The position numbers and the translations under genes were made by a program. This document shows, in pieces, positions 5,010 through 55,092 of a stretch of DNA of 64,000 nt. The stretch's first letter is position 1. The number at the start of each line of letters is the position of its first letter. Under the pieces are notes generated by a model that saw only the letters and a program-made list of their open reading frames with translations, was not told where the DNA came from and ran no database searches. The stretch is from Beijerinckiaceae bacterium (GTDB taxonomy: Bacteria > Pseudomonadota > Alphaproteobacteria > Rhizobiales > Beijerinckiaceae): NCBI GenBank assembly GCA_009773635.1, contig WSYC01000012.1:114030-178029 (forward strand), given 5' to 3'.

Positions 5010-6371
5010 ATGTCTGATTCCGAGAAGAACCGTTTTTCCGCCCGCGCGAGCCGCTATGCCCGTGTCGGGGCCAATATGGGCGGCGTGGCCGCCCGCATGG
5101 CGGGCAGCCTCATTGCCGGTCGCACCAGCGATGGCGACCGCGCCAACGCTGCGGCGCTGACCCGCGCTCTCGGCGGCCTCAAGGGCCCCCTCATGAAGGT
5201 CGCGCAACTGCTCGCGACCATCCCCGAAGCCATTCCGGCCGAATACGCCGAAGAACTTCGCCAACTGCAATCCGAAGCGCCGCCGATGCCGTATGTGTTC
5301 GTGCGTCGACGCATGGCTGTCGAACTCGGGCCGGACTGGCTGGCGAAATTTGGCAGCTTCGAGAAGGAACCCGCCGCCGCCGCGTCGCTCGGTCAGGTGC
5401 ATCGCGCGACCACTCTGGAAGGCCGGAAACTCGCCTGCAAGCTGCAATACCCGGATATGGAATCGGCCGTCGAGGCCGATCTTAGCCAGCTGAACCTCCT
5501 GTTCTCGCTGCATCGGCAGATGAATGGCGTGATCGACACGTCCGAGATCAAGCAGGAAATCGGTGCCCGCATCCGCGAGGAACTCGATTATCTCAGGGAA
5601 GCCCGTCACGCCGCACTCTACAAGGAAATGCTGGCCAACGAGCCACTGATCCGCGTGCCCGAAACCCTGCCGGCGCTCTCGACAAAACGCCTCCTGACAA
5701 TGGAATGGCTCGACGGCGAGAAAATCCTGGGCTTCAAGGACGCCGATCAGGACATCCGCAACCGGCTGGCGACCGCGATGTTCCGGGCATGGTGGCACCC
5801 CTTCAGCCATTACGGCGTCATCCACGGCGATCCCCATCTCGGCAACTACACGGTGTTCCGCGACGGGAATGGTGAGCCCGGAGGCATCAACCTTCTTGAC
5901 TACGGTTGCATCCGCATTTTCCCGCCGACCTTCGTCGCCGGCGTCGTCGATCTCTATCGCGGCATTCTCGAAGGCGACGAAGCGCGTACCGTGCAGGCCT
6001 ACGAGACCTGGGGCTTCAAGAACCTGACCAAGGATCTCGTCGAGATCCTCAACATCTGGGCACGGTTCATCTACGGTCCGCTGCTGGATGACCGCGTGCG
6101 CACCATCGCGGATGGCGTCTCGCCCGGCCAATACGGCCGCAAGGAAGCCGCCCGCGTGCATCAGGCGCTGAAAGAAAAGGGGCCGGTGACCATTCCACGC
6201 GAATTCGTGTTCATGGACAGGGCGGCGATCGGGCTCGGTGGTGTGTTCCTGCATCTCGATGCCAGAATGAATTTCTTCCGGCTTTTCAACGATGAAATCG
6301 CCGGTTTCAGCACTGCGGCAGTAGCGGAGCGGCAGGGCGCAGCGCTCGCGCGTGCCGGCTTGACGATCTGA
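5010..6371 (+). CDS. ABC1/AarF/UbiB family atypical kinase
   Basis: LKGPLMKVAQ, AAASLGQVHRA, ACKLQYP, HGDPHLGN and LLDYGC motifs. Confidence 0.9.
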   Translation: MSDSEKNRFSARASRYARVGANMGGVAARMAGSLIAGRTSDGDRANAAALTRALGGLKGPLMKVAQLLATIPEAIPAEYAEELRQLQSEAPPMPYVFVRRRMAVELGPDWLAKFGSFEKEPAAAASLGQVHRATTLEGRKLACKLQYPDMESAVEADLSQLNLLFSLHRQMNGVIDTSEIKQEIGARIREELDYLREARHAALYKEMLANEPLIRVPETLPALSTKRLLTMEWLDGEKILGFKDADQDIRNRLATAMFRAWWHPFSHYGVIHGDPHLGNYTVFRDGNGEPGGINLLDYGCIRIFPPTFVAGVVDLYRGILEGDEARTVQAYETWGFKNLTKDLVEILNIWARFIYGPLLDDRVRTIADGVSPGQYGRKEAARVHQALKEKGPVTIPREFVFMDRAAIGLGGVFLHLDARMNFFRLFNDEIAGFSTAAVAERQGAALARAGLTI

Positions 6372-6517
6372 CCAGTTCATGCGGGCTTCGCGCCCGCTAG
6401 AGACATCCTTCCCGGCGTGCATGGCGCAAGCATTCACGCTTTGAAGCAATTGCGTGACGCAGCAGTTTCCGCTAGATGCGAAAGCAACGCCAACGACACG
6501 GAATTGAGGGGAAGCCC

Positions 6518-12314: not shown

Positions 12315-12356
12315 CCGACCCTTACTTGCCGACCCTTACTTGCCGACCCTTACTTG
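12315..12356. repeat. 3 x 14-bp perfect tandem repeat (ccgacccttacttg) overlapping the rpsU stop codon
   Basis: Units start at 12315, 12329 and 12343; a further ccgaccc lies at 12294. Confidence 0.95.
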
Positions 12357-12580
12357 ACCTTCTTGACCGGCATCGGCAGCAGGCCTTCGCGCTGAAGCTT
12401 CTTGCGATGCAGCTTGCGGGCGCGACGCACGGCTTCCGCATCCTCGCGGGCGCGCTTCTCGGACGGCTTCTCGTAGTGGCCGCGCAGCTTCATCTCGCGG
12501 AAAATACCTTCGCGCTGCATCTTCTTCTTCAGCGCACGCAAGGCTTGATCGACATTGTTATCGCGGACGAGGACCTGCAA
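12350..12580 (-). CDS. rpsU: 30S ribosomal protein S21
   Basis: [25 protein letters not shown]...YEKPSEKR; TTG start. Confidence 0.98.
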
Positions 12581-14419: not shown

Positions 14420-14638
14420 TCAGGCGATGATATCCGGTGTCAGCCGATCAGAGACCGCTGCAACGCGATCACGCAGGAAGAGTTTGCGCTTCTTGAGCCG
14501 CTGGATTTGCAGCTGGTCGAAGGAGCCGAGCTGTTCGAGCGCTGCGATCGCGGCATCGAGATCGCGATGCTCGATATTGAGCCGGTGCAACTCCGCTTCC
14601 AGCGCCTGACGCTCTTCGTCCGACACCTGAACCCGCAT
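14420..14638 (-). CDS. DUF465/YdcH family small coiled-coil protein
   Basis: EHRDLD..I...RLKKRKLFLRD. Confidence 0.85.
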   Translation of the reverse strand: MRVQVSDEERQALEAELHRLNIEHRDLDAAIAALEQLGSFDQLQIQRLKKRKLFLRDRVAAVSDRLTPDIIA

Positions 14639-14745: not shown

Positions 14746-14856
14746 GGCGTTGTCCACAGCCGAATACGGAAGATGCGCCGCCTCACTTTTGGACTTGTGC
14801 CCCCCATGGTTTGTGACACACTCAAGATCCTGACACTGGGAACGGAGGTTTCTGCG

Positions 14857-15051
14857 ATGTCGATGACGGCGCATATTGCCGAACTGGAGCGCAAACATCA
14901 GGCGCTCGATAAACGTATCGCCGACGAATTGGCGCACCCCAACAAAGATACCGTGCGAATCGCTGCCCTGAAGCGACAGAAGCTCGTCCTGAAGGATGAA
15001 ATCCTGCGCCTGCGGGAAGCCCCGGGTACAGGCAAGCCTTCCTTGCACTGA
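14857..15051 (+). CDS. DUF465/YdcH family small coiled-coil protein
   Basis: HIAELERKHQALDKRI...LKRQKLVLKDEI; GGAGG RBS before ATG 14857. Confidence 0.87.
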   Translation: MSMTAHIAELERKHQALDKRIADELAHPNKDTVRIAALKRQKLVLKDEILRLREAPGTGKPSLH

Positions 15052-15120
15052 GGCTCGACAGCGGAGAACGACGGCTCTTGCCTTCAGAGGGCCTGTCGGG
15101 CGCCAAAATGCCTCGGATAC

Positions 15121-15151
15121 AAAAACGCCGCCTTCAGAACGAAGACGGCGC
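15121..15151. terminator. Terminator hairpin between convergent genes
   Basis: cgccgccttc-agaac-gaagacggcg with an A-run on the left, which is a T-run on the minus strand. Confidence 0.6.
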
Positions 15152-15194: not shown

Positions 15195-15563
15195 TCAGGT
15201 CAAGGCGCGTTCGACCTGCGCAACGATTGCGATCGGGCCGAAGAAGAAGGCCTGACGAACCGGCTTGCCGAGATGATCGGCCTCGGCGCCCGCCTGCATG
15301 ACCGGCTTGCCCAGATGATCCGACTCGGCGCCAGCCTGCATGACCGGCTTGCCCAGATGATCCGACTCGGCGCCAGCCGAACGAACCGGCTTGCCCAGAT
15401 GGTCGGCCTCGGCGCCCGCCTGCATGACCGGCTTGCCGAAATGATCCGACTCGGCGCCCGACTGCATAACCGGCTTGCCGGCATGTGTGGTATCGGGGGC
15501 AGCGGCAATGGTGGTGACGGCGAGCGCCGCAGCAAAGGCGGTGCCCAGCAAAATCTTGTTCAT
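15195..15563 (-). CDS. Secreted hypothetical protein with 14-aa tandem repeats (HLGKPVMQAGAESD)
   Basis: RBS CAGGAG, Sec-type signal MNKILLGTAFAAALAVTTIAAA, five full repeats plus one partial, hydrophobic C-terminal tail; 122 aa. Confidence 0.8.
   Translation of the reverse strand: MNKILLGTAFAAALAVTTIAAAPDTTHAGKPVMQSGAESDHFGKPVMQAGAEADHLGKPVRSAGAESDHLGKPVMQAGAESDHLGKPVMQAGAEADHLGKPVRQAFFFGPIAIVAQVERALT
15259..15486. repeat. 42-bp coding tandem repeat array (about 5.4 copies)
   Basis: accggcttgcc recurs at 15259, 15301, 15343, 15385, 15427 and 15469, an exact 42-nt period. Confidence 0.95.
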
Positions 15564-15800
15564 GGTCTTCTCCTGTGATTGCTTGACGGGAAGGCCGTTT
15601 CCCGTTGCCGGAGCAACGCGCCATCCGTCATTCGATGGATGGAATCTAGGGAGAGGTGGCGTCACATGCCAATCAACAGGGGGTGTCAACTCGCTCACGA
15701 AAGCATCGGCAAACGTGAGCCATCATCACGCGTCGGTGAAGAAGACCGCGCATCCAATTGCCACAATCGGGGGTAACGCGCGCCCTGCCTGCCGCTGGCC

Positions 15801-31158: not shown

Positions 31159-31259
31159 AAAAAAAAGGATCGCCGGAGCGATCCTGAATAAAGTCCAACA
31201 GGGAGGCGTCAAACAGAGCAGCAGGAGCCACTCGGGATCCGGCGAACCGGAACGCCCAT
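31159..31259 (-). ncRNA. Candidate trans-acting sRNA with anti-SD loop and intrinsic terminator
   Basis: Three hairpins on the minus strand: UCCGG-uucg-CCGGA; GUUUGAC-GCCUCCCU-GUUGGAC; GGAUCGC-uccg-GCGAUCC followed by U8. No credible ORF. Confidence 0.65.
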
Positions 31260-31277
31260 CGTTTTAAACCAAAGGCC

Positions 31278-31292
31278 TTAACGAGACGTTAA
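31278..31292. promoter_or_regulatory. Perfect CtrA box
   Basis: TTAA-cgagacg-TTAA, about 20 nt upstream of the candidate sRNA. Confidence 0.8.
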
Positions 31293-31374
31293 GTTCGTAC
31301 AATTTTCATCAAATGCATGGTATTTTCGCCCATGTTGCTGATTTGCTCGCGAAATCCGCACATGCCCCCGAAAT

Positions 31375-36129: not shown

Positions 36130-36287
36130 TGCGGGGCTGCGGAATGCGGCAGGTTATACGTATTCCCCGGGGCCTTAACAATCCCTAGGGAGCTGTACCT
36201 ATCCGGACCCGTGGGTCCGGGTACACGGCGCCCACCTACTTATGTAGGTTCCCGGGATCGACACTCCACCGGTTCTGTGGCTCCGCA
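36130..36287 (+). ncRNA. ssrS: 6S RNA
   Basis: Downstream of zapA. Terminal pairing gcggggctgcgg/ctgtggctccgc. Central alphaproteobacterial 6S motifs ccccggggcc...agggagctg...ggcgcccacctacttatgtagg..cccggg; about 158 nt. Confidence 0.9.
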
Positions 36288-54958: not shown

Positions 54959-55043
54959 GTTGTCGGGTGAACAGAAGAAATTTCGTCTTCCTCACCGCGG
55001 GCGATTGCTTTTTCTCCGCAACAGGCGTAGCTCCATCGGCGGG

Positions 55044-55092
55044 ACATCTCCCCCCAACGGGAGGCGCCCATCTGTAAGGATGGAGATCACAG
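55044..55092 (+). promoter_or_regulatory. serC leader RNA motif (putative cis-regulatory element)
   Basis: CUCCC-ccaac-GGGAG, GCGC linker, CCAUC-uguaag-GAUGG overlapping the RBS. This matches the recalled two-hairpin alphaproteobacterial serC element. Confidence 0.65.

Follow-up and report, generated by a model that had tools for sequence, protein, structure and literature searches.

The 14-aa repeat array on the minus strand of the 64,000-nt stretch of DNA analysed here (the window) belongs to a real, selected gene that has its own promoter and terminator. By sequence comparison, its family is uncharacterised, lies outside any known family and is very narrowly distributed, being confined to a small group of bacteria from soil and water. 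The product remains a well-delimited hypothetical protein, and its mechanism is not establishable from the sequence alone. Our tentative reading, which we hold to be possible rather than probable, is that the protein is disordered, resides in the periplasm and binds copper or divalent metal via Glu/Asp-His(-Met) sites.

A selected repeat gene with its own promoter and terminator

The sequence-only reading had described a gene that stands alone and encodes a Sec-exported protein consisting almost wholly of 14-aa units, and the open reading frame (ORF), the signal peptide layout, Tandem Repeats Finder and the unit table agree with this description (Table 1). The ORF translation gives a protein of 122 aa in the order MNKILLGTAFAAALAVTTIAAA / PDTTHAGKPVMQS GAESDHFGKPVMQA GAEADHLGKPVRSA GAESDHLGKPVMQA GAESDHLGKPVMQA GAEADHLGKPVRQA / FFFGPIAIVAQVERALT, with the units in the middle. 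Tandem Repeats Finder places the array at 15259-15479 (period 42, 5.3 copies, 87% matches, score 328), and it is the sole large tandem array of the window. At the protein level six units are present; the first, APDTTHAGKPVMQS, is degenerate and the other five are clear. One synonymous base separates units 4 and 5. The 42-nt period had been called exact, which is too strong, as the units are only 87% identical.

Table 1. Features of the repeat gene and its surroundings (window coordinates)
Feature	Position	Strand	Description	Basis
Coding sequence	15195..15563	-	122 codons + stop, TGA at 15195-15197	ORF and translation
Predicted Sec-type signal peptide, residues ~1-22	15498..15563	-	MNK, hydrophobic ILLGTAFAAALAVTTI, AAA	read from sequence
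Six 14-aa units	15249..15500	-	42 nt each	Tandem Repeats Finder and unit table
C-terminal tail, 17 aa	15198..15248	-	FFFGPIAIVAQVERALT; 11-residue hydrophobic run	
Antisense ORF, 166 aa	15078..15578	+	mirrors the repeat (…RLAQMIRLGASLHD…)	
Ribosome-binding site	15567..15574	-	AGGAGAAG; GGAG 6 nt before ATG	
Promoter-like site, sigma-70-like	15643..15672	-	TTGGCA-N18-TAGATT; -10 (C)TAGAT(T)	scan
Intrinsic terminator	15115..15151	-	GC-rich 12-pair stem + T run; stem/T run 15151-15125	
Conserved upstream DNA blocks	15669..15768	-		alignments of 6 loci
Upstream block	15768-15750	-	GATTGTGGCAATTGGATGC	
Half-sites	~15742-15694	-	TCAC-N6-GTGA-N7-TCACG-N14-CGTGAGC	
Upstream block	15686-15669	-	ACACCCCCTGTTGATTGG	

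The signal peptide of the window protein contains neither a Cys lipobox nor a twin-Arg motif. The same n/h/c layout, also free of Cys and twin-Arg, is common to all 11 relatives despite their sequence divergence, and the product is predicted to be Sec-exported and of the soluble periplasmic type. With 11 residues, the hydrophobic run of the C-terminal tail is too short to span a membrane. Such a tail had been pointed out before; it exists in the window protein but is not a family trait, since it is missing from four relatives (P0003, P0005, P0006 and L001). The tails of P0002, P0004, P0014 and P0027 are only loosely similar. The mature protein is mildly acidic (pI ~6), with a GRAVY of -0.3 and no Cys. 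AlphaFold2 returned a mean pLDDT of 45 and a pTM of 0.15 with no helix or strand, a no-fold result that is weak evidence because the alignment behind it is shallow (7 sequences). As far as this model goes, the mature protein is probably a disordered chain.

Across 43 units from 11 proteins the consensus is A-E-x-[D/T]-H-x-G-K-P-V-M-x-A, or with counts A(28)-[E37/D6]-[A/T/S]-[D22/T13/S4]-H(40)-x-G(41)-K(36)-P(38)-V(42)-[M28/R8/I5]-x-A(36). Outside the L001/P0005/P0006 lineage, Met is kept in 25 of the 28 units. Within that lineage Ile, Arg or Thr stands in place of Met in most units, and 1 of the 129 residues of the mature L001 protein is Met. The units of L001 are 13 or 14 residues long. Gln for His is found in 3 of the 43 units, two of the four in P0004 and one of the four in P0001.

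Across the array ORFs are open on both strands, and the variability at each codon position was therefore tested on 22 units from four orthologues (window, L001, L003 and L005). In the minus-strand frame the entropy is 0.66/0.50/1.15 at codon positions 1/2/3, so that the third position has twice the entropy of the first two. The invariant Val uses four codons, Ala three, and Glu and His two each. The low entropy at the first two positions compared with the third indicates that the minus-strand frame is coding and under purifying selection. The 166-aa ORF on the opposite strand was considered as a gene and rejected, as variability in the array is lowest at its third codon positions and its start and N-terminus are not kept in the orthologues; it is a mirror artefact of the GC-rich repeat. 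That the repeat is no protein gene at all, but an antisense ORF or a non-coding repeat, is hardly credible: both strands are open across the array, but the signal peptide and ribosome-binding site are conserved, an antisense start is not, and the codon-position pattern likewise speaks against it.

The RNA evidence consists only of assembled metatranscriptome contigs, which are not strand-specific. In a sludge metatranscriptome (X8), contigs from a ~92% identical relative cover the gene and its flanks at ~15x depth. In a bioreactor metatranscriptome (X23), a 150-nt contig is identical to the inside of the L001 gene, whose immediate flanks are not covered at identity. These contigs suggest that the gene is transcribed.

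The earlier claim that the gene has its own ribosome-binding site and terminator is borne out by the GGAG in front of the ATG and by the 12-pair stem with its T run (fold z-score -3.1), which is located between the repeat gene and the convergent DUF465 gene (14773-15051, +). The GGAG/GGAA block is retained in orthologues. In the promoter, TTGGnA and CTAGnT (GTAATT in L005) keep a fixed spacing across six orthologous loci with a variable spacer sequence. A structured leader, which had also been claimed, was abandoned because the hairpins of the 5' UTR are not conserved and show no covariation; the fold z-score is -1.38.

Conserved DNA blocks stand between the stop codon of the acyl-CoA synthetase gene and the repeat-gene promoter. 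Common to the six upstream regions are GATTGTGGC(A)ATTGGATGC, the half-sites listed in Table 1, and ACAC-N4-C-N-GTTGATTGG, which adjoins the -35 hexamer. RNAalifold on these six regions gave no covariation (term +1.17) and Rfam had no match at the locus at E <= 1, and the blocks are therefore read as promoter and DNA binding sites. They are probably binding sites of a regulator and form a candidate operator. Each block occurs once in the window, and other half-site matches there are mismatched and at chance level. A metagenome-wide scan with GCGTGA-N7-TCACG-N14-CGTGAGC returned 46 matches, none with an adjacent promoter block or repeat gene; many of them appear inside coding sequence and are chance-like. 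Comparison with the consensus sites of Fur/Mur, Irr, RirA, Zur, NikR, CueR and CusR/CopR gave no convincing fit, nor did comparison with those of FixK/FNR, PhoB, EcfG, sigma-54 and sigma-32. NikR sites were also looked up in the literature, and the search yielded nothing usable for this clade. Elsewhere in the window, Rfam matches at gathering score are 6S RNA (36131-36287, +), the alphaproteobacterial sRNA BjrC1505 (31160-31299, -) and a serC leader (55037-55088, +); the window has no tRNA genes.

Distribution and genomic slot of the family

The family had not been recognised in the earlier reading, in agreement with our searches: neither the protein nor the family profile had a significant match in Pfam, NCBIfam, PHROGs or PDB. 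A literature search on repeat motifs and on periplasmic disordered His-repeat proteins was unproductive, and tblastn with a four-unit consensus found no paralogue in the window. A word-seeded search of 5.8 billion protein clusters returned 6 relatives by single sequence and 10 by profile. The exhaustive HMMER profile search of 1.84 billion representatives added only P0014, P0018 and P0027 as true members. Both large searches together yield about 11 relatives, and ~9 are found among the 1.84 billion representatives. The members have 45-156 aa and 2-9 units, and the sole names among them read 'hypothetical protein [Rhabdaerophilum sp.]'. Genome loci come from Rhizobiales bacterium SYSU XM002, from two Rhabdaerophilum MAGs and from a MAG labelled Methylobacterium. 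Rhabdaerophilum belongs to the Rhabdaerophilaceae of the Hyphomicrobiales.

Neighbours are readable at seven loci (window, L001, L003, L005, L006, L007 and L056), and in all seven the gene occupies the same slot, in the order transketolase, AMP-binding acyl-CoA synthetase, repeat gene, two DUF465 genes, purE, purK and rpsU. The DUF465 genes, at 14420-14638 (-) and 14773-15051 (+) in the window, flank a short intergenic region, and the pair is kept in all syntenic loci examined. At the 3' end of rpsU (12350-12580, -) the window carries a perfect tandem repeat of 14 nt in three copies, CCGACCCTTACTTG (12315-12356).

The neighbourhood had been proposed as a place to look for conserved proteases, ATP-grasp ligases or metal transporters. 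Only housekeeping genes were found, none of them pointing to a dedicated partner: the conserved neighbourhood has no protease, metal transporter or curli-type gene, and its only ATP-grasp protein is PurK. Within +/-8 kb of L005 and in the window neighbourhood there is no modifying enzyme, protease or exporter. The two-unit member P0018 (65 aa; L055 1617-1814) is found in a different context of lower GC, divergent from a LysR-type regulator and near a two-component pair. This pair was considered as a heavy-metal type and turned out to be OmpR/EnvZ-like instead.

Candidate functions of the repeat array

Among the three ideas offered in the sequence-only reading, a metal sponge, a multi-core peptide precursor and a beta-solenoid or amyloid subunit, the metal sponge is the most plausible, because the best-kept polar positions of the unit are acidic and His, usually with Met. 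These positions are candidate ligands (acidic in 43/43 units, His in 40/43), and the predicted disorder and the mildly acidic pI of ~6 are in line with such a role. Once exported and freed of its signal peptide, the protein would remain periplasmic and disordered. Each of its units would form a small carboxylate-imidazole(-thioether) site from His, the Glu and Asp that precede it at distances of one and three residues, and the Met that follows it at a distance of six. In this picture the array would take up several Cu, Zn or Ni ions at modest affinity and work like the periplasmic metal buffers of the SilE/PcoE type without kinship to them, and the operator-like blocks upstream would make its expression conditional.

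The characterised small periplasmic His/Met/acidic repeat proteins of Gram-negatives, SilE and PcoE, bind metal and are disordered in its absence. Like them, the repeat protein is small, Cys-free, predicted to be Sec-exported and disordered, and contains repeated His, Met and acidic residues; with these features in common it may work like them. The differences are also clear. Homology to SilE/PcoE was not detected, with no such model listed in the Pfam and NCBIfam scans at E <= 10. HxxM or MxxH pairs are absent, each unit having one His and at most one Met in the arrangement H-x5-M, and the 14-aa units form an exact tandem, whereas the motifs of SilE/PcoE are dispersed. In contrast to SilE/PcoE of the sil/pco/cus clusters, the repeat gene is chromosomal and sits in a housekeeping slot at the seven loci, and Met is not universally kept in its family.

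Several results stand against the metal-binding reading. The conserved neighbourhood contains no metal transporter, oxidase, chaperone or metal-sensing regulator, and the upstream motifs match none of the metal-regulator boxes compared. Met is largely lost in the L001/P0005/P0006 lineage, and His is changed to Gln in the 3/43 units described above. P0018 adjoins the LysR-type regulator and the OmpR/EnvZ-like pair, not a heavy-metal two-component system. G-K-P-V, which contains no ligand, is as strictly kept as His, and this is a better fit to a specific recognition motif than to a loose metal sponge. If the metal-binding reading is true, the family would represent an independent invention of a disordered periplasmic metal buffer, built from an exact tandem motif, whose valency could be tuned through the number of repeats; the 14-residue peptide would then be a compact, testable module.

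The array may alternatively present a short linear motif in many copies, either to engage a specific partner in the envelope by strand addition or to self-assemble into a fibre. We regard this as rather unlikely. In its favour, G-K-P-V and Ala match His in conservation, at signal peptide identities of only ~40% across lineages. In addition, the commonest non-family matches inspected in the exhaustive profile search are proteins with a DLTGKP repeat of 14-aa period, and these match PHROG tail-fibre families. The proteins with the FSGxYxDLxGKPxL repeat that were compared with window positions 15249-15500 are P0010, P0015, P0026, P0035 and P0036. The consensus is AGAEADHLGKPVMQ in the window family and FSGAYADLTGKPTL in the phage repeat; hhalign sets both in register with a probability of 94.8% and E 5e-8, and a column-permutation test that preserves period and composition gave p = 5.5e-5. 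This p value may nevertheless be due to chance, since profile scores are inflated by repetitive sequence, and repeat families are numerous in the database. Common to both repeats are the 14-residue period and an in-register G-A-x-A-D-x-x-G-K-P, with 7 of 14 consensus positions shared. In the window family, however, the aromatic/aliphatic core is replaced: where the phage repeat has its defining F, Y and L, the unit has Q/A, E and H. At E <= 0.01 the window protein matches no PHROG tail-fibre family. Unlike the long phage fibre proteins, the members of the repeat family are short (45-156 aa) and have a signal peptide. Neither repeat has a solved structure, and no partner gene is linked to the array. 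The units may share ancestry with the FSGxYxDLxGKPxL repeat seen in tail-fibre-like proteins of phages, and the unit may be a domesticated, de-hydrophobised tail-fibre repeat.

It is improbable that the gene is simply a young, lineage-restricted one with little or no specific function, kept by chance while its copy number drifts. Its extremely narrow distribution (~11 clusters among 5.8 billion, ~9 among 1.84 billion) would suit such an origin, as would a slot that is otherwise conserved and housekeeping while the tail and the copy number vary. But the motif is clearly under purifying selection, the promoter and the operator-like blocks are conserved, and the gene is retained between lineages whose proteins are only ~45-50% identical. 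With these properties and its conserved slot, the gene is a clear-cut case of taxonomic restriction, useful for studying the origin and expansion of small secreted repeat genes.

A Sec-exported multi-core precursor, cut in the periplasm into peptides of 13-14 residues that serve as signals, antimicrobials or metal carriers, is quite improbable. The bufferins are a known case of exported RiPP precursors that carry Sec signals. As in bufferin, ustiloxin-type (fungal) and yeast alpha-factor precursors, a signal peptide is followed here by near-identical short units, and the mature protein begins, and in four relatives also ends, exactly at a unit boundary. Unlike all of these, it shows no recognisable processing sites, dibasic or other, lacks Cys and is not linked to a modifying enzyme or protease. 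The unit has neither a core-versus-spacer pattern nor a recognisable cleavage site, its length varies between 13 and 14 in L001, and the conserved neighbourhood offers no protease, modifying enzyme, exporter or ATP-grasp ligase other than PurK. The precursor idea finds no support in these housekeeping neighbours; if true, it would describe a multi-core ribosomal peptide system in a Gram-negative without dedicated linked enzymes.

We consider equally poor the prospects of a beta-solenoid or functional-amyloid subunit with one rung per 14-aa unit. The period is regular, Gly and Pro could form a turn and V-M-x-A a strand, and the AlphaFold2 model has isolated single-residue strand calls at or near the Val positions. 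Secretion and the presence of Gly, Gln, Ala and Val in each unit are also shared with curli CsgA and other repeat amyloids. However, the same model, from its shallow alignment, contains no strands of >=3 residues, and hydrophobic residues are few per unit. In contrast to CsgA, the protein has no predicted beta structure and no curlin repeat match, nor does it match any other solenoid family in Pfam, and csgB/E/F/G-like accessory genes are absent nearby. The proposal does not hold up well against the low pLDDT, the missing secondary structure and the missing curlin match.

Variation in unit number

The isolate genome L001, from Rhabdaerophilum calidifontis SYSU XM002 (gene at 5905-6375), has nine units, arranged as three super-repeats of 40 aa (14+13+13 residues), and the near-identical MAG proteins P0005 and P0006 have three units, or one super-repeat. 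The exact L001 protein has no copy in a collection of 15 billion proteins. Short-read unitigs of the window-bearing runs X1 and X2 break within the array, where the k-mer depth is 1.6-3.7x that of the flanks; these unitigs do not verify the copy number in the window. The differences in unit number between relatives may be real, or they may come from repeat collapse in short-read assemblies. Copy-number variation had been anticipated from the near-identical units, and unit number does differ, in the range of 2-9 units across relatives and in L006, which has 4 units against 6 in the window within flanking DNA that is ~88% identical. Such a change in unit number is as expected from unequal recombination on the 42-nt repeat.
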